51,962 nucleotides of DNA from a virus. Its lineage: Duplodnaviria > Caudoviricetes. Made by a program: the position numbers and the translations under genes. The notes beneath the pieces are model-generated. The model had not been told where the DNA came from. It saw nothing but the letters and a program-made list of their open reading frames with translations, and ran no database searches. The stretch spans positions 1 to 51,962 of the IMG/VR virus record IMGVR_UViG_3300012933_000077, one strand, 5' to 3'. Position 1 is the first letter of the stretch, and the number at the start of each line of letters is the position of its first letter. Shown here piece after piece: positions 2 to 51,960 of the stretch.

Positions 2-322
2 TGTGAAATCAAACATACCGAACGGGTAATGGAACTTATGTGGTTCTTCTTTTGGATTTTCTCTGAAGTCTATAAACTTGATCGAAGTTTTATATGTTCC
101 ATTGCAATGAGGCATCCAGTCTTCGTCCTTCAACTCAAGTAAGTTTAAGAACTCATTAATGTGCCCGATTGTAGATTCACCGACGCCGATGATTGGAATG
201 TTTGGGGATTCAATCAAAGTCAACTTAACTTCTGGTAGCTGTTTACAGATAGCTGCAGCGGTCATCCACCCTGAGCTACCGCCACCGACGATGGTGACGG
301 AGTTTATTTGTTTCTTCATCAT
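2..322 (-). CDS. Flavin-dependent (tryptophan-type) halogenase, N-terminal part; runs off the left edge
   Basis: Not in the ORF track. Manual translation: MMKKQINSVTIVGGGSSGWMTAAAICKQLPEVKLTLIESPNIPIIGVGESTIGH...WMPHCNGTYKTSIKF...HYPFG. It shows the GxGxxG FAD motif, IGVGEST and the catalytic-Lys motif typical of PrnA-like enzymes. The ATG overlaps the upstream stop (TAATG). Confidence 0.9.
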   Translation of the reverse strand, partial: MMKKQINSVTIVGGGSSGWMTAAAICKQLPEVKLTLIESPNIPIIGVGESTIGHINEFLNLLELKDEDWMPHCNGTYKTSIKFIDFRENPKEEPHKFHYPFGMFDFT

Positions 323-1557
323 TATTTAAATTCTTTCTTTATCTGCAAGGCTGAATCAATATCTTGAAAACCGAAAGTGCGTTCGCACTCGTGGCAGTCC
401 CAACATTGGTTTCGGCAAGAAGATAATAGCTTCTCTAAACGCTTACCATTATCTGTACTCCAGATACCAGTGTAACCTTTATACGTTTTAGTGTAGTCGT
501 TTTTAACAGTTCTTGTGTCAATCCATCCTGGAACCCAGTCATGGATAGGTGCTAGGTTGTTTTCAACGATGGCTTCAAAACTGTCCGAATAAACAGACTC
601 ATGAGCGAATTTAATAACCTGTTTAAATCTGTCACCGCTTTTGTAGAACCAGACTGCTTTTAAAAATTCAGTATCTTCTAAGTTAGTTGCAGGTGTAGTT
701 AGGCGACCAGAGTATTTGAAGATGTCAACTAAGTCGAAAAACTTGTTGAACATATCTGAATCGTTTGCTACCAAGTCGATACCTGAACGTGGAAGATCAG
801 CGAATTGTTTTAAACCTCTCCAGCCGTTACACGACAGGTTAGCTGGACCAGCGAAATAGTCAGTGCTAATATGTTCACCGACCGCATCGTGTTCTTTCTT
901 AAACGGGCATCTGTAAATGCATGATTCCGCCACCAATAAAGATGTTAAAAGTTTCTTCTGGGGATTTTTACTGTTGAGGTAGTTTTGCGCTTCTCTAATT
1001 CGACGCAGTTCTTTAATGTTTCTATTTAAAGAACGGTCTAGTAGAATTGTGTTATACCCTAGATACGCATAATCAATGAGCTGTTGCGCATCGGCAACAA
1101 TTTGATTTACAGTAGACTTCCAACGCATGTCTGGACATCTAGCTTGTAGTTCTCCAGTGCGCATGATATGCTCTGAGCTAATGGTACAAGACCTTAACCC
1201 TCTGTCATAATATGAACCAATCCATTCAACAAACTTAGCTCGTATGTCGTGATCGAATACAACCTCGTTTGGAACTTCAACCGTGTTGAATGTTAGAGAT
1301 ATTTCAACTCCAGTTTCTTCTTGGAGTTTGAACAAGTAATCAACCTGTTCATCAGACGCCTGAACGCCCATGGCATTACCACAGCGTTTAGTTTGACCCT
1401 TGTATTCATACTCGAAATACTTACCAAAGTACACATCGTGGATGTTGTTCAAGTACGCTGGGTCAGCGTTCTTCATAATTCTGTAGTAGAAATCTGTATA
1501 CTCACCGTCAAATCTGTCAAAATGCGCAATTGAAAATCTCTTAGAGAATTTATTCAT
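322..1557 (-). CDS. Peptidase U32-like (Fe-S) family protein
   Basis: Motifs STVN..., LGY..ILLDRSLNRN, LLVAESCIYRCPF..H and FKYSGR, plus a C-terminal CxxxCxxCxxC, match the pattern of U32-family proteins. SD GAGGTG upstream. Confidence 0.65.
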   Translation of the reverse strand: MNKFSKRFSIAHFDRFDGEYTDFYYRIMKNADPAYLNNIHDVYFGKYFEYEYKGQTKRCGNAMGVQASDEQVDYLFKLQEETGVEISLTFNTVEVPNEVVFDHDIRAKFVEWIGSYYDRGLRSCTISSEHIMRTGELQARCPDMRWKSTVNQIVADAQQLIDYAYLGYNTILLDRSLNRNIKELRRIREAQNYLNSKNPQKKLLTSLLVAESCIYRCPFKKEHDAVGEHISTDYFAGPANLSCNGWRGLKQFADLPRSGIDLVANDSDMFNKFFDLVDIFKYSGRLTTPATNLEDTEFLKAVWFYKSGDRFKQVIKFAHESVYSDSFEAIVENNLAPIHDWVPGWIDTRTVKNDYTKTYKGYTGIWSTDNGKRLEKLLSSCRNQCWDCHECERTFGFQDIDSALQIKKEFK

Positions 1558-5524: not shown

Positions 5525-5977
5525 TTACACCCCTAGCTTGTCAACTCGTACTTTTAATTCTTTGATAGCTTCAATGATTAGTGGTATTAGTCGATCGTAT
5601 TGTACAGTCAAGTAGTCTTCACCAGAAATACTTGAACCGTCAGCGGCAATGTCAAACGGTGCAGGCTTGACGGCTTGAGGTTGAACCTTCTTAACGTCTT
5701 GGGCATACAAACCAACTTGCTCATCATAGTTGTTGTAACCGAATTGTTCTGCTAGTTTATTCTGAGTGTAAACAACACCAGTTAACTGTTCGACTTTGTC
5801 TAGAGCGTTTTTGATTTGCTCGACTTCTGTTTTTAATCTTTTATCGGAGTAATACGCTGTAATTTGGTTAGTCGCTCTAATCTCACCAGCTGTACCAGAT
5901 GCAGCAGTTCCAACGCCAATTGAGTTGGTTTGTTGGTTTGGGTTCATTACACCTGAAGATACTTTAGTTAATGACAT
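5525..5977 (-). CDS. Short fibre protein with C-terminal intramolecular chaperone (peptidase S74)
   Basis: YYSDKRLK...ALDKV..L.GV.Y...VGLYAQDV..VQPQAV...LTVQYDRLIPLIIEAIKEL. Confidence 0.85.
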   Translation of the reverse strand: MSLTKVSSGVMNPNQQTNSIGVGTAASGTAGEIRATNQITAYYSDKRLKTEVEQIKNALDKVEQLTGVVYTQNKLAEQFGYNNYDEQVGLYAQDVKKVQPQAVKPAPFDIAADGSSISGEDYLTVQYDRLIPLIIEAIKELKVRVDKLGV

Positions 5978-11475: not shown

Positions 11476-11483
11476 TATTTATA
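11476..11483 (-). promoter_or_regulatory. T4 late promoter (TATAAATA)
   Basis: Exact T4 late consensus at the gene boundary. Confidence 0.7.
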
Positions 11484-12699
11484 GTCCGATATGCGTCTTG
11501 ATTTTATTGATTTCAACTCTAAGCTCTTTAATACCTTCAACTAGAAGCGGAGCAAAGCGAGAGTAGTCAATAGTCAGATATTGTTCGTCGATAGGTGCTG
11601 GACTTACGATTTCAGGCATAACTTTCTGAGTTGACTGCGCAGATAAACCAACTTCACGTTTAGCTGTATAGCCTAGTTCTTGAGCCTTGGCGTTTGCCTC
11701 ATAGTAGAAGCCAGTCAAAGAGTCAATTTTGTCCAGAGCATTCTCAATGTTACCAAGACGAGTCTTCAGATTATCATCAGAGTAATACGCAGTAATGTTA
11801 CCAGTGGCAATAATCTCACCAGCGCCAGCCACAGCTGTTGTATTTACAGATAGTCCGTTGATATATGCTTTATTGAAACGGTGATCAGTTTGACCGATGT
11901 CTCCAGAGCCGTTTGTTCCAGTGTGAGAAATACTACTTACAGCTGGGTCAGCGTTCAACGAAATTGTTGGGTTTCCATCTTTACCGTTACCATTAGATAC
12001 TGATAATGAGTTACCTACTTTAATTTCTCGAACAACTGATGAGTTTGTATCAGTACGAATTACAAGACCGTTACCAGTAGTAGCAGAAACGCCAGAAAGA
12101 ATAGCAGCATACGCTTGCACATCTTGACCGATAACCAAACCAAGGTTAGAACGTGCACCGCTGGCATTAGAAGCGCCAGTGCCGCCGTCAGCAACTGTTA
12201 AATCAGTAATGCCAGTAATTGTACCACCAGTAATGTCAATTTCAGATTTGTTCTGAATAGCCATATTACCGCAACCAAGGTTAGAACGTGCAGTAGATGC
12301 GTTAACGGCACCAGTACCGCCGTGATCCAATTGAACCACACCTTCAACGTTCGTCGCATTACCAGCTAGTGATCCAGTTACAGCGCCTGTAAGGTTGCCA
12401 ATAACATCACCAACGTGTAGTCCATAAAATTGAACAGCGTAGATATGACCAAGACCATCACGCAGAGCGACCGTGTTAGGTAGAGCTGCAGTATTTGGAT
12501 ATTTACCGTGTACCTTATCAGCGTCCAAAGTAGAACCAGCGCCAGCGTTGTTGTTTAAAACGTTTAGAACGTTCGTTGCGTTAAAAGCAACTGCGTCCAA
12601 CTTAGTACCAACTTCACGGTTGATAGCGTCAAAGTTATGATCGACTTCTTGAATCGTTAGAGGACGTTCAATATTCGCCCATAGGTTAATAGCAGCCAT
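11479..12699 (-). CDS. Tail fibre protein with S74 chaperone domain
   Basis: GGTGA.NAS.ARSNLG fibre repeats (2 copies); YYSDDNLK...VGLSAQ...MPEIV...LTIDYSRFAPLLVEGIKEL. Confidence 0.85.
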   Translation of the reverse strand: MAAINLWANIERPLTIQEVDHNFDAINREVGTKLDAVAFNATNVLNVLNNNAGAGSTLDADKVHGKYPNTAALPNTVALRDGLGHIYAVQFYGLHVGDVIGNLTGAVTGSLAGNATNVEGVVQLDHGGTGAVNASTARSNLGCGNMAIQNKSEIDITGGTITGITDLTVADGGTGASNASGARSNLGLVIGQDVQAYAAILSGVSATTGNGLVIRTDTNSSVVREIKVGNSLSVSNGNGKDGNPTISLNADPAVSSISHTGTNGSGDIGQTDHRFNKAYINGLSVNTTAVAGAGEIIATGNITAYYSDDNLKTRLGNIENALDKIDSLTGFYYEANAKAQELGYTAKREVGLSAQSTQKVMPEIVSPAPIDEQYLTIDYSRFAPLLVEGIKELRVEINKIKTHIGL

Positions 12700-44088: not shown

Positions 44089-44592
44089 CTAGTCTTTCTT
44101 ATAACGAACAGCTACAAAATGTACATTGGCATGGCGTTGATGCATTTCAAGCCAAACTTTACGCCAATGACGTATGAACCGATCTTGGTCCATATCCTTT
44201 TTCACAATCTCATCAGTTGCTGAAGAGATATCATCCTCAAAGATGGAATCGCAGCCCCAAATATGAACTTCGTCACTTCCATTATCAATTAAGTATTGAG
44301 CGGCATAGTGAGCCGAGTTATACCAATCGCGGGGTTTGAAAACATCTAAAATCAAATAGTCATTTACAATACGAAGCTCTTTCATTTTCTCAAAGACGTT
44401 TGTACTAATGATGAGCGGTGTGTCTCCGATTAGATGAGGGCTGTTCTTTAGAATCCAAACAATCTCCACGTCACAGATAACTGTAGCATCAACACTATAC
44501 TCATCAGTTGGGATATTACACCCTATAACAAAATCACCAGTCCTATCATAAGCAACCTTACTTGGACCATTTCCCAATACAACGCCTATCAT
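44089..44592 (-). CDS. Hypothetical protein, possibly sialyltransferase/Maf (DUF115)-like fold
   Basis: VVLGNGPS, IGCN, NSAH.A..YL...G..EVHIWGCD pattern. Confidence 0.5.
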   Translation of the reverse strand: MIGVVLGNGPSKVAYDRTGDFVIGCNIPTDEYSVDATVICDVEIVWILKNSPHLIGDTPLIISTNVFEKMKELRIVNDYLILDVFKPRDWYNSAHYAAQYLIDNGSDEVHIWGCDSIFEDDISSATDEIVKKDMDQDRFIRHWRKVWLEMHQRHANVHFVAVRYKKD

Positions 44593-44609
44593 AATATCTC
44601 CGAATTAGT

Positions 44610-45000
44610 GGGTGGTTATTCTGTTACGAGGAAACCACCCGAAACCCTAGTCAGCGATTAGGCTGCCAATGCGAAAACGTTGTCGTTTGCATTTACTTCT
44701 TTTGCTTCTTCGACCGAGTTACCCCAATCCTACGGGTTTCACATTCCCGTGCTGTCCACTTGTTTACTTGTTGCCCTGTCGAAACCATGGCATCCCCATC
44801 AAAAGTAATCGTTGCATTCTCAACCACTCGCCTTAGTGGTCGGTTAGGGAGGCTGTCCACACTACTAACACAGTCTTGACCTGATGCCCTAACTCGATGA
44901 CCGCTTTTATTCCTAGTCACTTCGGTGATTACTTTTGGTGGAGATGGGGGGAGTCGAACCCCCGTCCAGAACACTTTTCTATCCGCTTCATACAGCAATA
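44610..45000 (-). ncRNA. ssrA: Circularly permuted (two-piece) tmRNA
   Basis: The minus strand reads first the T-arm and 3' acceptor end (GGACGGGGGTTCGACTCCCCCCATCTCCACCA, ending at 44936), then a 138-nt insert, then the 5' end GGGGATGCCATGGTTTCGAC (starting at 44797). The acceptor stem GGGGAUG/CAUCUCC has the G3.U Ala determinant, helix CAGGGCA/UGUUCUG follows, and the tag frame is present. Outer ends are approximate. Confidence 0.92.
44658..44690 (-). other. tmRNA tag reading frame ANDNVFALAA*
   Basis: TAAAT GCA AAC GAC AAC GTT TTC GCA TTG GCA GCC TAA. Confidence 0.92.
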
Positions 45001-45006
45001 ACCTAT

Positions 45007-45035
45007 ATTATATATGATTTCTGATTAAAAGTCAA
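45007..45035 (-). promoter_or_regulatory. Sigma70-type promoter for the tmRNA
   Basis: TTGACT-17 nt-TATAAT ending about 7 nt before the predicted tmRNA start. Confidence 0.82.
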
Positions 45036-45435
45036 GGACTTTCTTTCCAATGAGCTCAGACCAATAATCAGCATCCTGAGTTGTAACTCGAATATCAACT
45101 GTTTCGGGTTTTACAAACATTTTATTTGTGTCAGAGTATTCACTCTCTTGGATCGTATCAACCCATACAATAAAATCAGGTTCAAAGTTTGTACGCATCT
45201 CAGGTAGAGGTGCCACAAAGTCAGCAATGACGTATTCTTTATCGCTTTCATCAGCGAGTTGACGCATTCTTAGACTTTGTCTAATTCTACCCTCGTGACT
45301 AAAATCCCAGTCATTATATTTCTCTCTAACAGCATCAGCATTGAGCCATAGACAGTTAGGAAATAATTGCCAAGTTAGAGCCGCAGCCAAAGTAGACTTA
45401 CCTGCTCCTGGGAGACCCATAATTAAAATTCTCAT
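45025..45435 (-). CDS. cysC: Adenylylsulfate (APS) kinase-like protein
   Basis: RILIMGLPGAGKSTLA P-loop, LNADAVR, DFS.EGR.RQ..R, DFVAP...R, F..PE..D. Start set at ATG 45435. Confidence 0.8.
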   Translation of the reverse strand: MRILIMGLPGAGKSTLAAALTWQLFPNCLWLNADAVREKYNDWDFSHEGRIRQSLRMRQLADESDKEYVIADFVAPLPEMRTNFEPDFIVWVDTIQESEYSDTNKMFVKPETVDIRVTTQDADYWSELIGKKVLDF

Positions 45436-45436
45436 A

Positions 45437-46033
45437 TCAAAACCTATACTTAAACCGATCAATATCTTCAGCGAATATTTCAGAAACTCGTTTCTTACTT
45501 TCTTCAGTGTAATAATCTACATAATGAGTTCGTTGGCTTATATTTTTAATAGGTAACGGTAAAGTATTACCAACAACCTTTTGAACTCTTTTAAAATCTT
45601 CTTCTAAAGATTCATATTTTAATACATCAACAGTATTATCTATCCACGAGCATTGATTACTGCTTAAAGTGTATGGACTGATAAAGGTATTTGGGTATAT
45701 GTCAATATTTAAAATCCAGTCATTGAATGAAACATCTTTCAGCCATTCAAATTCTTTATACACGACTGGCATCTTTTGTGTCAAGTGAGAGTATAAGCTG
45801 ACTGCGTAATCCCATGGGTTTCTAACAACGGCGAATGTGTAACCCAAATCAGAAACTTCTCGCCTTACTTCATTTACACCCCAATGTTCTTTAGTGTCAC
45901 AGAATCTACGCATAGTATAACCATTTGGTGGATATACACACATGAGCCTGAACCATTCAGTGATACTTGTACCAGCTGTTTTAGGTACATGTATGAACGT
46001 TACTGTGTTTTTACCAGTTACTTGAAATGTCAT
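45437..46033 (-). CDS. Sulfotransferase (family 2-like)
   Basis: FIHVPKTAGTSI (5'-PSB) and FAVVRNPWD..VSLY (3'-PB) PAPS-binding motifs. Confidence 0.88.
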   Translation of the reverse strand: MTFQVTGKNTVTFIHVPKTAGTSITEWFRLMCVYPPNGYTMRRFCDTKEHWGVNEVRREVSDLGYTFAVVRNPWDYAVSLYSHLTQKMPVVYKEFEWLKDVSFNDWILNIDIYPNTFISPYTLSSNQCSWIDNTVDVLKYESLEEDFKRVQKVVGNTLPLPIKNISQRTHYVDYYTEESKKRVSEIFAEDIDRFKYRF

Positions 46034-46683
46034 ACGTAATCAATATCAAATACAAAGACGTCTCGTGGTAATTCATTACCGTGAGTGCTAACTCCGTGCC
46101 AGACGTAAGGTGAGTGGATAACTAATAAACCTTGTTTTGGTTCAAGCCATGTAGTATCTTCTTGTTTAAAGAATTCTACTGGGGTATCTGCTTTTCCATC
46201 TTTAACAAATACCAAGTTAGAACTATCTGGCGGTACATTAACGTATAGAATACCAACGGCGTCTGGACAAAAGTTCTCGTGTCTATAACCAGTCATAGTG
46301 GCTAGATAATTGTCAATCTTAATATGCTGATGAACGTTACCAAACGAATCTTTCAACATACGATTAGCCCAACTACGTTTAAAATAAACGCCATTCCCTT
46401 TATGTGAATAACCCAAAGTATCTTTGACTGATAGGAATTGCTCTGTCAACCACTCTTTTAGATTATCTGCGCCAGGAAGGTCGATTAGTGGGTATGGTTG
46501 ACCAACGCTAGTCATACCACCACCCTTATGCGAGTCTCCGATTGTTTCTCTAACACGGTTTATAACAACTGGAGATTTGAATACCATATCAACACTATTG
46601 GTCAATAACTTATTCTTGTAGATTTGCTCATCGTCACATTGAATTTGAACAACTTCATGACCATAAATCTTTTCTACTTTCAT
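46030..46683 (-). CDS. 2OG-Fe(II) oxygenase-like protein
   Basis: SWAN......HQH, GILYV.VP..S.NLVF, PKQGLLVI....VWHGV..H....R. Confidence 0.75.
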   Translation of the reverse strand: MKVEKIYGHEVVQIQCDDEQIYKNKLLTNSVDMVFKSPVVINRVRETIGDSHKGGGMTSVGQPYPLIDLPGADNLKEWLTEQFLSVKDTLGYSHKGNGVYFKRSWANRMLKDSFGNVHQHIKIDNYLATMTGYRHENFCPDAVGILYVNVPPDSSNLVFVKDGKADTPVEFFKQEDTTWLEPKQGLLVIHSPYVWHGVSTHGNELPRDVFVFDIDYV

Positions 46684-48143
46684 ATCCCTATCATCCTCTT
46701 ATATTCATTAACTCTGAATTGCTCCAGTTCATACGTGTCGTACTTATCTAGAAGCTCCCGTTGAGTGTAGTTATATAAGTCATCTAATTTAAAACCATCA
46801 CTCAAAGCAGTTATCATATTGAAGCCAGCGTACTTATTCATCGGCGCTCGCATCATATTAAACCTCTTAGATATATCTAGACACAAATTAAATGATAGTT
46901 TTTCTCTTAGTTTCCATGATGAGTTATCTGTAGTGAACTTATATCCATAGGCTTCGTGGTTTAAACTGAACTCTGAACTATATCGTTCTGGAACACCCTT
47001 AACCAAACTCAATGGATAAAACCTAATCGCGTGGATTGGATTATCTTCCTTCATTGACCAAGTAATCAACTCATTGAAGTAACTCATACTGTCATGAGGT
47101 AATCCTAGAATGAAACCGCTTTCGATATTCACTCTGTTATTCCAAGTTTCGTTTAACCAATACAACCTATCAATTACTTTGTTCGGGTGTAACCCTTTAC
47201 CAATTGCTTTAGCTGAATCTGGTTGAAGAGTTTCAAGTCCAAAGAACGTACCAATCAAACCCATTTCTTGTAATAGTTGCGCTTGATGTGGATAACGGTT
47301 AATCAAGTCTATTCTAAGATATGATGCGAACTTTAACTTAAATGGAAGGCTTGTAAATAGTTTATGTAACGTTTCTATCTTATCGTTATCATCATTGAAC
47401 GTATCATCAGTGAAATAGTATGTATCCGTTCCATGAGTTTCCCAAGCTTGAACCATTTCATCTTTTACTTGATCAAAGTCACGAAGGTACGTGCCTTTCT
47501 TCTTACCGAGTAATGGATAGCTACAAAACTTACACTTGAATATACAACCTCTAGCCAATTCAATAGGTAACGCTTCGCCTGTGAAGACTTTAAAGTCTGT
47601 CCATCGAGTTGGGATATTTTTAACGTCAGGCTCAGGGTAGTTTAACGAATCAATCACCGACTCGAGATGACGGTTTGTTTTGATAGCCCCTGTAATATCA
47701 AGAATGGAATTATCGGCATTACCTAAAACATAATGATCAACTAGAGAATCAATTTCTAGGAAATATGGAGACTTAGCGCCACCGTAAATCAACTTGGCGT
47801 TACTATGTTCTTTGACATACTGTAACACTTTAATCACATCGTCATACTTTGTATAGTACATAGTATCAACCGACGATGTTTGGCTGATCTCAGATTGTTT
47901 GTTCCAGAAAAAGGTTGATGAAAAACCAACCCAAAGAGTATCATCGCTCAAATGAGGTTTGATAGCTTTTATTATCTCTTCAGGTGAAAGGTGTTGAATG
48001 AAATCAACAACAACTGTGGAGTAATTAGAGTCTTTGAGGGCAGTCGCTAAACGATATGCCCCCAAATTTCTTCTTAACTGAGCCCAACCATTATCAATCT
48101 CATTCTGCCCTGCTAGAATGATACAATTAGCCAAAGAAACCAA
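46680..48143 (-). CDS. B12-binding-domain radical SAM protein
   Basis: N-terminal GAYRLA..L......VVDF, VGFSST, LIYGGA; ELARGCIFKCKFC (CxxxCxxC), FTDDTFND, FGLET, GFILGLP. Confidence 0.85.
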   Translation of the reverse strand: MVSLANCIILAGQNEIDNGWAQLRRNLGAYRLATALKDSNYSTVVVDFIQHLSPEEIIKAIKPHLSDDTLWVGFSSTFFWNKQSEISQTSSVDTMYYTKYDDVIKVLQYVKEHSNAKLIYGGAKSPYFLEIDSLVDHYVLGNADNSILDITGAIKTNRHLESVIDSLNYPEPDVKNIPTRWTDFKVFTGEALPIELARGCIFKCKFCSYPLLGKKKGTYLRDFDQVKDEMVQAWETHGTDTYYFTDDTFNDDNDKIETLHKLFTSLPFKLKFASYLRIDLINRYPHQAQLLQEMGLIGTFFGLETLQPDSAKAIGKGLHPNKVIDRLYWLNETWNNRVNIESGFILGLPHDSMSYFNELITWSMKEDNPIHAIRFYPLSLVKGVPERYSSEFSLNHEAYGYKFTTDNSSWKLREKLSFNLCLDISKRFNMMRAPMNKYAGFNMITALSDGFKLDDLYNYTQRELLDKYDTYELEQFRVNEYKRMIGI

Positions 48144-49350
48144 CCCCTTCAGCGACAGTCAACCAACTGTTGATATAATATGACTTCATATAATCTTCAC
48201 TCTTCTCTGGGTTAGCCAAGTGTAGTTTATCTAAGTCTTGATTGGTTACATTATCCTTATTCATATCTCGCAACCTCAAAATAAACTCAGGGGTTTGGTT
48301 ACGTTCTTTAAACGTTGTCCAGAACTCACTATCAGTTCGTTTGGTTAGGTAATGTAAGTGAATAAAAATCATCAAGTCGCTATTAAAGTTTCGAACGACA
48401 TTGTTATACTTTTCGACAGCTCGTTCGCCATCCCTAATGTACATGGGGATGTATTCTTTTAAGAGTTGAAGAGATTTTACCTGAATCCAGATAGAAGTTG
48501 CTTCCATTGGTTCAGTGAAACCAGAAGCTAGACCGATGGCGATGCAATTCTTAATCCAAGTCTTGTCATAAGACCCAGCTTCAAAGTCAAAGAACCTAGG
48601 AACTGTAATTTCGTGACCGAGTAATTGTTCAACTTCTTCTTTGGCTTGTTCATCAGTTATGAAATTACTATCGAACACATATCCACAGCCATAACGACCT
48701 TGAACTGGGATTCTCCACATCCACCCATACTTCATAGCGACAGCGCCAGTATAATCTGGAATGTTACCATCGTGATCTATAAAGAACGGCATGGCTCTTT
48801 TAGCAGGTAAGTGTTTAGTGTAAGAGTTCCACGGGGATTTGTAGTGGTTACCGATAATTAAACGGCGGAGACCAGAGCAATCCATAACGAAGTCAGTGTC
48901 AACAACGTTACCAGAACGTAACGTTAGAGATTTGATACAACCTCTAGAATCTTCATTGATATCTGATACAATATCATCGATCAATTTAACGCCACGTGAT
49001 CGACCAACACCTTGTAAGTATTTGGCTAGAAGATTAGCGTCGAAGTGTAACGCATATTGACCTTCCCAGAACGGGTGGAAATAATCTTTATCATCTCCGT
49101 TCCAGTTAGTGAAGTTAATACCATTCTTAACTGTAGCCTTTGCATGCTCATACAAATCACTTTCTGGAATGTCTAAGTCTTTCAACAAATCCATAAAGTG
49201 TGGAGTTGTTCCTTCACCAGCGCCAAGGATACCTAACTCGCTACTGGCAATTACAGTAACATCAGAGTAAGGCATAAACTTCTTCAAACTCAAAGCAGTA
49301 AGCCAACCAGCTGTACCACCACCTACAACGACATATTGATACATGATCAA
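48127..49350 (-). CDS. Flavin-dependent (tryptophan-type) halogenase
   Basis: VVGGGTAGW, GAGEGT, ATVKNGINF.NW (catalytic Lys position), DCSG, GWMWRIP (WxWxIP), GL.SGF.EP.EATSI. Confidence 0.9.
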   Translation of the reverse strand: MIMYQYVVVGGGTAGWLTALSLKKFMPYSDVTVIASSELGILGAGEGTTPHFMDLLKDLDIPESDLYEHAKATVKNGINFTNWNGDDKDYFHPFWEGQYALHFDANLLAKYLQGVGRSRGVKLIDDIVSDINEDSRGCIKSLTLRSGNVVDTDFVMDCSGLRRLIIGNHYKSPWNSYTKHLPAKRAMPFFIDHDGNIPDYTGAVAMKYGWMWRIPVQGRYGCGYVFDSNFITDEQAKEEVEQLLGHEITVPRFFDFEAGSYDKTWIKNCIAIGLASGFTEPMEATSIWIQVKSLQLLKEYIPMYIRDGERAVEKYNNVVRNFNSDLMIFIHLHYLTKRTDSEFWTTFKERNQTPEFILRLRDMNKDNVTNQDLDKLHLANPEKSEDYMKSYYINSWLTVAEGVGFFG

Positions 49351-49976
49351 TCCTTAAATAAAATCTTACCGTTCTCTTCTCTAATCTTAACTTGCTCGAC
49401 TAATTGATCAACATAGAAGCTGTGCTTTTCTGGATTATTCCACATATGTTCAGGTACATATAAGTTGATAGCTGGAACGGACTGAGCAGTTCTCAAATCA
49501 ATCGCGCAGAAGTATTGGAATGCGTTTTGGCAATTGGCACGTTCGAGTTGGAACGGATCAATCAATTTTCTAATCTTAACTTGAATAACGTGATCAACAG
49601 TCATCAACAAGTCAGCTAATTTCTGAGCATTCTCTGGAACTTCCTCTAGCTTCAAAGACCCCTTCAACTGAACAACTTTACCTTCATGTGGTCTAAAATT
49701 GAACGTTGTAGAGGTACGACCTTGAGGGTCGTTCTCCAGAAAATCAAACCACTTTGGAATAAAATCCTTAGCAGGTTCGATCGAGTTCTTCAATAAGAAG
49801 TCGTTAGGTACGACCAACACAAAGGTCAATTCTCTTTCATCGACCACGTTGAATGCGATTGAGGGGATATCACCGATTTGTTGATACACGCTATAATCAG
49901 GTTCAGTAGCATAAACAAGTTTAACACCTTCTATGCTTTTAAGTAATTCAATATGATCGTGTAAAGAGTATTCCAT
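49347..49976 (-). CDS. Hypothetical protein coupled to the radical SAM gene
   Basis: TAATG overlap with the rSAM gene and 4-nt overlap with the halogenase; no recognisable motif. Confidence 0.75.
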   Translation of the reverse strand: MEYSLHDHIELLKSIEGVKLVYATEPDYSVYQQIGDIPSIAFNVVDERELTFVLVVPNDFLLKNSIEPAKDFIPKWFDFLENDPQGRTSTTFNFRPHEGKVVQLKGSLKLEEVPENAQKLADLLMTVDHVIQVKIRKLIDPFQLERANCQNAFQYFCAIDLRTAQSVPAINLYVPEHMWNNPEKHSFYVDQLVEQVKIREENGKILFKD

Positions 49977-51418
49977 TAGTTCTCCAGTCTAGATTGTCCG
50001 TAGATTTCTACGTCGTTAATCTTTCCGATTTTTTCAGCGACTACCTTAATTGGTATCACCTTTTGTTTAGGTTTTTCTTCATGTGTATATAATGTACCCC
50101 AGATGTCTTGGCGATCTAGTGGAAGACCGTCAGCTTTAATAGACATTGGAATATACCCACCAGTGATTCTAGCGAAAGCAACTGCAAATAGAGCAACGTT
50201 ATCAGAATAAGCGCTGGCGCATGTAGCGTCCCAATACTTACCATCCAAGTACATACAAGAACCTTTACACAAGTGTAGCACTGGACACTCAGAGCAGTGA
50301 TCGCGGTTCTTCCAATGTGTAACTGACTTCAAAGCAACGTTATCATAGTCGTCTAAGTTACCACCCGAGTGACTCTCACCATTCTTACTTGTTTCAACGA
50401 TAGAAACGTTCTGGCAAGTTACGATATTACCTTTGAGGTCAAGGGCGATTACATGCTCATCATCCATACCACACTTTTGACCAACATATTTTGATTCAGT
50501 GTGAGCTAATACGTCTTTGATAAAGTTATCAATCTTCTGTAGAGTGTTACCGAAGCCAATTTGACCATCGGTACTGTATAAGTCATTGAACGCTGTTCTA
50601 CGATATTCAAAATGCTCAGCATAAGTTTGAAGAGAACTACCAATGGCAGCTTCGTCGTAAGCGTCAATGAAACTACCTTCGCCGATGCGCACATCTTCGC
50701 GACCTGTAGCTTCAACGAACCACTTATACACAGCTTCACGGCTAGTGTTCTCTCTATGCATCATCGTATTGAAACTAATACGGTTTTGTTCGTGCATAAT
50801 GTTATAGAACTCTAGAATAATTTTCTTTTGTTCGGCGTCATCGAATGGATCTGGACCACGAGCGTGTTGACCAGGACCATCATGGCTAATACCAATGTTG
50901 AAGTTCATATAGTACAACCAAGAACAAATCTCACGAGTCAACAATGAGCCGTTAGTAACCATACTGAACAAAGGACGGTTCTTTTCCCAGTGGCTATACT
51001 TTTCCACAATAGCTTCAGTGAGTGGTTTTAATGTTTTCCAATAAACCAAAGGCTCACCACCCCAGAATTCGATTTTCAAACCACGTTCTTCAGTTAGGTT
51101 TAATACATCCAACTTAGCCAAGAACGCTTCGATATCTTTCTTCGATGTTTCTGGTGGACGCTCAACAAAACGCTGAGAACAATAGTCACATGTGTAGTTA
51201 CATGACAAACCCAACTGGATTTTAATAACAGCGATATCTTTAGATTTCTTTAGGGGATCATCTTTAGAGAACGCACGTGTTTCATGACGACACGGTTGCT
51301 GGATTGTAGGATACTCAAATACCTTATCGTCAGTTTCTTTCAAAACGTTCAATGTATTATCATAGTAGAATGTTTTAGTTTCACCAGTTGTTGTACCAGC
51401 AAGAATTTCAAAAATCAT
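49976..51418 (-). CDS. Radical SAM/SPASM-domain protein (peptide maturase-like)
   Basis: CNYTCDYC, FWGGEPL, VTNGSLL, ISHDGP; SPASM KCG...G.IVTC...CSECPVLHLCKGSC...C. Confidence 0.92.
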   Translation of the reverse strand: MIFEILAGTTTGETKTFYYDNTLNVLKETDDKVFEYPTIQQPCRHETRAFSKDDPLKKSKDIAVIKIQLGLSCNYTCDYCSQRFVERPPETSKKDIEAFLAKLDVLNLTEERGLKIEFWGGEPLVYWKTLKPLTEAIVEKYSHWEKNRPLFSMVTNGSLLTREICSWLYYMNFNIGISHDGPGQHARGPDPFDDAEQKKIILEFYNIMHEQNRISFNTMMHRENTSREAVYKWFVEATGREDVRIGEGSFIDAYDEAAIGSSLQTYAEHFEYRRTAFNDLYSTDGQIGFGNTLQKIDNFIKDVLAHTESKYVGQKCGMDDEHVIALDLKGNIVTCQNVSIVETSKNGESHSGGNLDDYDNVALKSVTHWKNRDHCSECPVLHLCKGSCMYLDGKYWDATCASAYSDNVALFAVAFARITGGYIPMSIKADGLPLDRQDIWGTLYTHEEKPKQKVIPIKVVAEKIGKINDVEIYGQSRLEN

Positions 51419-51435
51419 AATTTAGCCTTATATAA

Positions 51436-51843
51436 TTACCAGCAGTTACAAACGAAGCAATCGCAGTTACAGTTAATAGAGTGAGTGTTTTGAGTACAGT
51501 TGTATGTGCAGTTACAGTTACAGTTTGGTTGTAGATACTTAGTAGTACCATCACAATTCACACAATTGATAGCGTTGCAATTTAAACAGTTCGGGCAATT
51601 AACGTTACCACAATTACAATTGGATTCTGTACAATTACCATTATTACAGTTACCTTCAGTTGTTGATGCTTCATACCCCTTCGCGTGGGTGTTATCCATA
51701 TCAGAAATAACATTAACAGCTCCACCGCGAGTTGTTCTTGTGTTAGCTTTTACCCAATTTAAACCAAGTTGGTTTGTACCATTTCCAATTTCAGCATTAA
51801 TATTATTGATTGAAATTGGCTGCCCGAATGCAGGTGTTGTCAT
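51436..51843 (-). CDS. Asn-Cys-rich protein; candidate radical SAM substrate/precursor
   Basis: 65-aa Cys-free N-terminal part, then 18 Cys in the last 70 aa (16 as Asn-Cys); ends ...CNCW; AGGGG SD; 17 nt upstream of the rSAM gene. Confidence 0.85.
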   Translation of the reverse strand: MTTPAFGQPISINNINAEIGNGTNQLGLNWVKANTRTTRGGAVNVISDMDNTHAKGYEASTTEGNCNNGNCTESNCNCGNVNCPNCLNCNAINCVNCDGTTKYLQPNCNCNCTYNCTQNTHSINCNCDCFVCNCW

Positions 51844-51870
51844 TTTTGACCCCTAAAATATCTATTGTAC

Positions 51871-51878
51871 TATTTATA
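51871..51878 (-). promoter_or_regulatory. T4 late promoter (TATAAATA)
   Basis: Exact consensus 28 nt upstream of the start of the Cys-rich gene. Confidence 0.72.
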
Positions 51879-51960
51879 TGTTGTACTTATTCTTATAGTC
51901 AAGGCGGGATTTGCGGAATCCAGCGATCCAAGTATCACGTTTTTCAATGAAAACCCTAGG
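51874..51960 (-). CDS. 3' end of a gene entering from the right edge, possibly a T4-like exonuclease
   Basis: Open frame PRVFIEKRDTWIAGFRKSRLDYKNKYNI*; only 28 residues are visible. Confidence 0.45.
   Translation of the reverse strand, partial: PRVFIEKRDTWIAGFRKSRLDYKNKYNI

Follow-up and report, generated by a model that had tools for sequence, protein, structure and literature searches.

IMG/VR record IMGVR_UViG_3300012933_000077 provides a stretch of 51,962 nt of viral DNA (hereafter the window), within which we studied a block of eight minus-strand open reading frames (ORFs) running from position 51843 down to 45025. The first two genes of the block encode a small Asn- and Cys-rich protein (the Cys protein) and a radical S-adenosylmethionine (rSAM) enzyme with a SPASM domain, and these two genes form a fixed unit. 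On balance, we favor the reading that the Cys protein is made late in infection, is modified by its dedicated rSAM/SPASM enzyme and by tailoring enzymes, and caps a tail fiber, rather than being a secreted RiPP, a peptide made on the ribosome and modified after translation. We take the window to be a portion of a T4-like phage, with baseplate, tail-fiber, single-stranded-DNA-binding-type and ClpP genes, those names being presumptive where they go beyond Pfam or PHROG matches; freshwater metagenomes contain DNA near-identical to it. The features that carry the argument are the following:

51436..51843, minus strand: 135-aa protein with a three-helix N-domain (residues 1-60), an Asn-Cys region (64-135, 18 Cys) and a C-terminal Trp; proposed substrate and fiber-tip protein
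49976..51418, minus strand: radical SAM/SPASM enzyme with CxxxCxxC (Cys 73, 77, 80) and seven SPASM Cys (316, 335, 375, 378, 384, 388, 400); core partner
51871..51878, minus strand: motif match to the T4-type late promoter consensus TATAAATA; position conserved in relatives

The linkage of the two core genes was observed from both directions. An rSAM query returned 144 confirmed relatives, and among the best 80, which were kept, 78 loci carried a Cys gene (68 within 60 nt); the exceptions, L017 and L060, lie at contig ends. A query with the Cys-protein alignment returned 104 confirmed relatives, and 78 of the best 80 kept carried an rSAM scoring above 200 bits, with the contig of L302 stopping after the Cys gene and the rSAM of L332 being cut. 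Since the two sets overlap in the same contigs, loci were grouped at 90% rSAM identity, which reduced 157 two-gene loci to 75 groups; over these groups, the identities of the two proteins correlate (rho 0.43, p 0.001, Mantel test).

The cofactor motifs of the rSAM enzyme can be read directly. It matches Radical_SAM and SPASM, including TIGR04085 at 33.7 bits against a cut-off of 27, and all ten Cys of the CxxxCxxC motif and the seven-Cys SPASM set are invariant in 55 of 55 representatives; approximately 60 residues precede the core. The top NCBIfam match is the PapB family (E 5e-24, 85 bits against a cut-off of 340), and PDB matches include CteB (5wgg), while none of the named maturase equivalog cut-offs was reached. 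Three phage-like cassette contigs (L086, L087 and L088) are filed in bacterial metagenome-assembled genomes (Bacteroidetes, Lishizhenia and Saccharimonadales) and were probably mis-binned.

Residues 1-60 of the Cys protein are modeled confidently as three short helices (a pLDDT, or predicted local distance difference test score, of 82-90), and the remainder has no confident fold. The last 72 residues contain 18 Cys and 21 Asn, and 16 of the 18 Cys are directly preceded by Asn (7.0 expected; reached in 0 of 5000 shuffles), Asn at i-1 being the sole enriched spacing relative to Cys. Searches of Pfam, NCBIfam and PHROGs with this protein returned no family, sequence and fold searches of the PDB gave no match, tblastn against cultured phages matched nothing, and a scan of metagenome contigs gave zero confirmed relatives. 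Homologs comprised 78 proteins near its length and 103 found with the N-domain profile. The 178 stored homologs were 76 free-standing proteins (47 with a terminal Trp), 16 fusions to the self-cleaving chaperone S74, 81 fusions to a domain that we term KIIC, four other long proteins and one protein lacking the Asn-Cys ladder; in L325, the Cys protein is fused to a Hint-like domain. The N-domain profile also matches five ladder-less phage proteins, one of which has a Gly-rich body and lies in a fiber operon. In the structural models, the N-terminus takes the form of a folded module and not that of a leader.

The KIIC domain is a conserved C-terminal unit of ~170 aa behind the ladder with invariant K-I-x-C, ADQ, W-A and P-W (L013:11809-12309 and other KIIC loci), for which Pfam, NCBIfam, PHROGs and the PDB returned no match. 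It takes the place of S74 or Hint and is, by analogy, a candidate new self-cleaving domain.

The genomic context in relatives connects the pair and its neighbors (the cassette) with tail fibers. The corresponding fiber gene of the window is:

11479..12699, minus strand: S74-bearing tail fiber that may carry the Cys protein; in L329-L331, its ortholog directly precedes the cassette

At 12 loci (L014, L034, L038, L042, L051-L053, L064, L081, L325, L327 and L332), the Cys gene lies directly behind an S74 tail fiber. The cassette of L329-L330 is flanked by homologs of the window fiber genes at 11479-12699 (313-316 bits) and 5525-5977 (163-166 bits). The cultured phages JWF and RSP15 carry 44%-identical rSAMs in their tail regions: in Achromobacter phage JWF, the fiber gp028 has an Asn-Cys ladder followed by Hint at its end, with the rSAM gp030 two genes later, and in RSP15 a side fiber ending in Asn-Cys is followed three genes later by the rSAM gp045. 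At five loci of Ferrovibrio, enzymes of 35% identity lie near proteins of 615 or 204 aa that end in ladders, and one tested contains collagen repeats. From these fiber-type contexts, we infer that the product is probably a fiber-tip part of the virion, in agreement with an earlier reading of the sequence alone, which had suggested that it is kept on the virion or released by lysis. That reading had also noted that no leader protease or exporter is visible; none occurs in the block, the window stopping 84 nt upstream of the promoter, and a virion part would need no exporter. The window ORF at 5525-5977 (minus strand) encodes a minimal S74 protein, with ~44 residues before the cleavage motif and a tip motif shared with the 406-aa fiber.

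The eight genes are co-oriented and tightly packed, as the sequence-only reading had described, with intergenic gaps of 17, -1, -4, -17, -4, -4 and 1 nt, and the exact late-promoter motif it had placed before the block is present 28 nt before the Cys gene. In the window, TATAAATA occurs 3 times against 2.55 expected and is by its count alone not above chance. In relatives, 26 of 33 free-standing Cys-first genes have ATAAATA 6-60 nt upstream, as compared to 157 of 1696 other ORF starts and none of the five Cys genes coupled to a fiber gene. This conserved position makes late expression of the block likely. Sigma-70 and terminator scans gave results at chance level. Contigs from RNA runs in three studies match, at ~99%, the genes for the Cys protein, the rSAM and the 209-aa protein; such contigs cannot show transcription, and the parts of the block that they leave uncovered carry no weight. 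In runs X2 and X3, contigs join position 45000 to 51908 and omit the whole block 45001-51907 (side 29-30 nt), which indicates that relatives can gain or lose it as a unit.

We compared the system with four described ones, using the accessible portions of the papers cited. The nearest is CrpC/CrpA/CrpB of Methanococcus voltae (PMC13692751), where an rSAM with seven auxiliary Cys in its SPASM domain also stands beside a protein with a C-terminal Cys-rich region. CrpC has three clusters and installs thioethers on the Cys-rich protein with varied acceptors. Further proposed likenesses to the block are that what results is a protein in modified form rather than a peptide set free, and that a small neighbor improves modification. 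The Crp substrate differs in being an archaeal cell protein with CxxQ/D repeats, in contrast to phage Asn-Cys dipeptides with a fiber context, a halogenase and oxygenases, and the window rSAM scores 52 bits against TIGR04463 (cut-off 525). Phages are not mentioned in the main text of PMC13692751. Ranthipeptide maturases such as NxxcB, PapB and CteB are likewise rSAM/SPASM enzymes, the PapB model being the top NCBIfam match and CteB being among the PDB matches; NxxcB joins Cys-S to the Asn beta-carbon (PMC9389541). Their substrates, however, are short exported leader-core peptides, whereas here the donor-acceptor spacings at i-3 and i+3 (NxxC, CxxD/E) are not enriched and scores fall far below the cut-offs. 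The sequence-only reading had recognized a ranthipeptide/sactipeptide layout in a Cys-rich protein beside an rSAM/SPASM gene: the pair proved fixed in both directions, and the motif did not follow. We assign the system to the protein-substrate rSAM/SPASM modification type and not to the ranthipeptides.

The adhesin gp38 on gp37 of T2/S16-type phages (PMC12032242) resembles the Cys protein in being encoded by a small gene behind a fiber gene and in combining an N-terminal attachment module with a variable C-terminal body; that body is polyglycine instead of Asn-Cys, and gp38 is described there with no dedicated modifying enzyme. None of 53 members of the Cys-protein family matched the Gp38 attachment domain of Pfam. 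A search of the open literature, with subscription journals outside its coverage, found no paper on rSAM modification of phage fibers or any other virion part, and the accessible portions of PMC12801897, PMC5332604 and PMC5468394 only list such phage enzymes.

What was observed comprises gene linkage, cofactor motifs and genomic contexts; the chemistry of each maturation step, like the placement on the virion, is inferred. After late transcription of the block, the rSAM, perhaps aided by the 209-aa protein, would activate the thiols of its substrate's Cys at an open auxiliary cluster, and these thiols would couple to radicals on nearby Asn or Asp carbons in the fashion of NxxcB and CrpC (PMC9389541, in its accessible portion). 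That the rSAM acts on the Asn-Cys region is highly probable; that the bond is a thioether from Cys-S to an Asn or Asp carbon could as easily prove wrong as right. Cross-linking would stiffen the part of the protein for which no fold is predicted, the halogenase would modify the terminal Trp, the 2-oxoglutarate (2OG) enzyme would hydroxylate, and the N-domain would dock the product on the fiber tip. In fusions to S74, Hint or KIIC, self-cleavage would expose the ladder as a new C-terminus and so stand in for a leader protease, cleavage by KIIC being assumed by analogy.

Several observations speak against this picture. In the window, the cassette lies 33 kb from the fiber genes, and likeness to gp38 is below threshold everywhere (BFVD E 4, Atlas TM 0.41, no PDB match). 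Neither NxxC (7 against 5.1 expected) nor CxxD/N (4 against 5.6 expected) is enriched in the Cys protein. The correlation between rSAM and Cys-protein identities is explicable by shared descent alone, and one contig from run X2 (depth 6.9) omits the Cys gene and keeps the rSAM, with 23 other letters in place of window positions 51422-51871. The remaining such points concern the halogenase and are given with it below.

The other six genes of the block differ in how closely they follow the pair. Of the families proposed from the sequence, profile searches upheld those of the rSAM/SPASM enzyme, the halogenase, the sulfotransferase and the 2OG oxygenase; support is weaker for a B12 domain and for naming the last enzyme an APS (adenosine 5'-phosphosulfate) kinase. 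Tailoring genes were counted in 65 groups, the other 10 of the 75 being excluded because less than 4 kb follows downstream; trees were quick or FastTree builds, from which L083-L085 were excluded.

49347..49976, minus strand: protein of 209 aa in which an alpha/beta domain of ~100 aa is repeated in tandem; likely accessory factor
48127..49341, minus strand: flavin-dependent halogenase with GxGxxG, a catalytic-type Lys and WxWxIP; lineage-linked
46680..48143, minus strand: B12-type radical SAM enzyme, optional member; homologs start at the TTG at 48134
46030..46683, minus strand: 2OG-Fe(II) oxygenase (HxH...H; 2OG-FeII_Oxy_5), lineage-linked
45437..46033, minus strand: sulfotransferase family 2 (Sulfotransfer_2), rarely linked
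45025..45435, minus strand: APS-kinase-like P-loop kinase, 136 aa, rarely linked

Three of these genes, those for the 209-aa unknown protein, the halogenase and the 2OG oxygenase, accompany the pair in this lineage, as the earlier reading would have it. The ~100-aa domain of the 209-aa protein gave 68 matches in 47 loci, every one a cassette locus with the domain directly behind the rSAM, and it is present in 18 of the 29 groups without KIIC and in none of the 36 with KIIC. No family was found in Pfam, NCBIfam or PHROGs; the domain model is confident (pLDDT 87), with a best VIA Z of 6.1 among unrelated folds, BFVD E values of at least 0.02 and no usable match in Atlas. The chances are about even that it serves as a chaperone or adaptor.

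The halogenase matches Trp_halogenase with 330 bits and is, past residue 92, ~60 residues shorter than PrnA-type enzymes. A close halogenase (at least 300 bits) was present in 17 of 17 groups with Trp as the last residue of the mature Cys protein and in 0 of 48 others. Cassette halogenases form one clade of 24 rows (support 96) with 21 cassette members, two truncated ones and one exception, L135. The association of Trp with halogenase is not statistically established: the match amounts to two tree changes and one or two independent pairs (sign test p 1), and three terminal-Trp groups came solely from the halogenase search. Trp stands in the cleavage motif of 11 of 16 S74 fusions, and the terminal Trp may thus be left over from such a motif. 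The halogenase of L014 is a distant one and the terminal Trp is lacking there, L135 has a clade halogenase and lacks the cassette, and 6 of 80 halogenase-selected loci carry the Cys gene. Whether the enzyme acts on the terminal Trp is, in our estimate, evenly balanced. The L135 halogenase lies in a fiber operon, beside a Gly-rich protein sharing the N-domain. In the window, a second Trp-halogenase gene (2-322, minus strand, cut by the window edge) closes a tail-fiber operon, preceded by genes for three Gly-rich proteins and a 411-aa unknown protein (322-1557, minus strand; phrog_1458). The second halogenase and the L135 context hint at halogenation of other fiber-tip proteins.

The 2OG oxygenase was found in 14 of 17 terminal-Trp groups and 0 of 48 others, a linkage that is one-sided, being counted from loci selected by other genes. 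It may hydroxylate the Cys protein, with Asn as a likely site, at slightly less than an even chance. KIIC lineages have a different set: an Asp/Asn beta-hydroxylase-like gene confined to cassette loci (78 of 78), along with other oxygenases and desaturases.

The B12-type rSAM matches Radical_SAM and contains CxxxCxxC; NCBIfam B12-rSAM matches are below cut-off (TIGR04072 over 27-355), and Pfam B12-binding (PF02310) has no match on the window protein and weak matches on homologs. It occurs in 9 of 17 terminal-Trp groups and 1 of 48 others, and contigs of runs X6 and X7 join the halogenase to the 2OG gene and skip it (side 27 nt). Among 20 loci selected by this gene, 11 lie beside a gene for an amino acid:DNA transferase, the Cys-rSAM pair is present at one, and another is truncated. 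Its tree mixes cassette and DNA-modification contexts (five changes), with the window copy in a six-row cassette clade. Its closest relatives adjoin amino acid:DNA transferase, Tet/JBP, GATase, GNAT and P-loop kinase genes, as in thymidine hypermodification clusters (PMC8989533); those genes act on DNA, whereas the window block has none of them, and M6 gp53 is not described as B12-binding in the accessible portion of that paper. Methylation of the Cys protein by this enzyme is rather doubtful. At L182:2488-10538 and ten similar loci, a B12-type rSAM occupies varying positions in a Tet/JBP-GATase-GNAT-amino acid:DNA transferase-P-loop kinase cluster, and L198 has two copies in such a cluster; these could be an unstudied DNA-modifying enzyme.

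The kinase scores above the cut-off of Pfam APS_kinase over profile positions 5-92 of 152 only and 32 against 127 in NCBIfam; its best PDB match is seryl-tRNA(Sec) kinase (E 8e-4), and APS kinases are not among its PDB matches, for which reason we prefer the more cautious 'APS-kinase-like P-loop kinase'. The sulfotransferase and kinase together occur in 1 of 65 groups, the window itself, and are absent from its five closest relatives (L003-L007). None of 80 kinase-selected loci had a Cys gene, and a sulfotransferase scan of viral contigs gave zero confirmed relatives. In L012, a sulfotransferase lies between the rSAM and the Cys gene. L086 (70% rSAM identity), whose contig is without a Cys gene and falls outside the group counts, has the order rSAM-U-halogenase-2OG-2OG-sulfotransferase-x-kinase. 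These two enzymes probably stand outside the Cys-protein pathway, and it is unlikely that they act on the Cys protein.

The sequence-only reading had joined all eight genes in a single pathway by which a phage product, here taken to be the Cys protein, would be cross-linked, halogenated, methylated, hydroxylated and/or sulfated. The tight coupling of the genes, the repetition of their order through sulfotransferase and kinase in L086, the sulfotransferase inside the pair in L012 and the absence of the block as a unit in X2 and X3 agree with it; the restriction of the last two genes to one group, the lack of Cys genes at kinase loci and a B12-rSAM that is optional and shared with DNA-modification copies do not, and we consider a single pathway quite improbable. 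At the other extreme, the enzymes could be a generic accessory-gene island shuffling independently. Their families are indeed common in phages without the cassette (halogenase 74/80, kinase 80/80, B12-rSAM 18-19/20), yet a co-occurrence check contradicts this for the core: the 78/80 linkage is reciprocal, and the 209-aa domain and the Asp/Asn-hydroxylase-like family are restricted to cassette loci. Such an island is very improbable and would at most apply to the last two genes.

Two further alternatives keep the pair and change its product. A true RiPP-like peptide or intracellular effector could be released at lysis, with the N-domain as its leader, which would suit a free-standing late operon distant from tail genes, here and in L003-L007, and its many tailoring enzymes. 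The N-domain, however, is predicted to fold and occurs on ladder-less fiber-operon proteins, ladders terminate long fibers in JWF and RSP15, and the block has no leader protease; we regard release as improbable. Slightly less so, though still unlikely, is rSAM chemistry on the ladder other than i,i+3 thioethers, such as inter-chain links, epimerization or preparation of a metal-binding ladder. Asn at i-1, the lack of a confident fold and the unmet family cut-offs fit it; the three-Cys AuxI and four-Cys AuxII pattern instead fits Cys-activating thioether enzymes, and CrpC acceptors are varied (PMC13692751, PMC9389541, as far as accessible). We retain the fiber-capping protein as the favored reading, at slightly better than even odds.

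A broader proposal, which we judge less likely than not, is offered tentatively: phages may build the host-binding fiber tip as a RiPP-like protein, an rSAM-stapled Asn-Cys ladder decorated in a lineage-specific manner by halogenase, oxygenase, methylase or sulfotransferase, and host range may be tuned by enzyme swaps together with adhesin mutation. If true, an enzymatic maturation step would be added to tail assembly, a role would fall to the numerous rSAM, halogenase and 2OG genes of aquatic phages that lack an explanation and are at present listed under auxiliary metabolism or antibiotics (PMC12801897, PMC5332604, accessible portions), and new peptide-modifying enzymes with an 18-Cys substrate would become available.

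Some neighboring observations stand apart from this system. Ralstonia phage RP12 has a 28%-identical rSAM and no Asn-Cys ladder among the ORFs listed, as is also the case for L094, L096 and L097. Its locus (L085:5114-11069) contains three rSAM genes and an MgoB-like gene behind virion-protein genes plus a 125-aa His/Tyr-rich ORF, and is possibly a different virion-modification system. Next to the block, the window encodes a permuted two-piece transfer-messenger RNA (tmRNA; 44567-45028, minus strand) with the tag ANDNVFALAA, and a near-consensus sigma-70 site by the tmRNA, TTGACT-17-TATAAT (45035-45007), overlaps the kinase stop.

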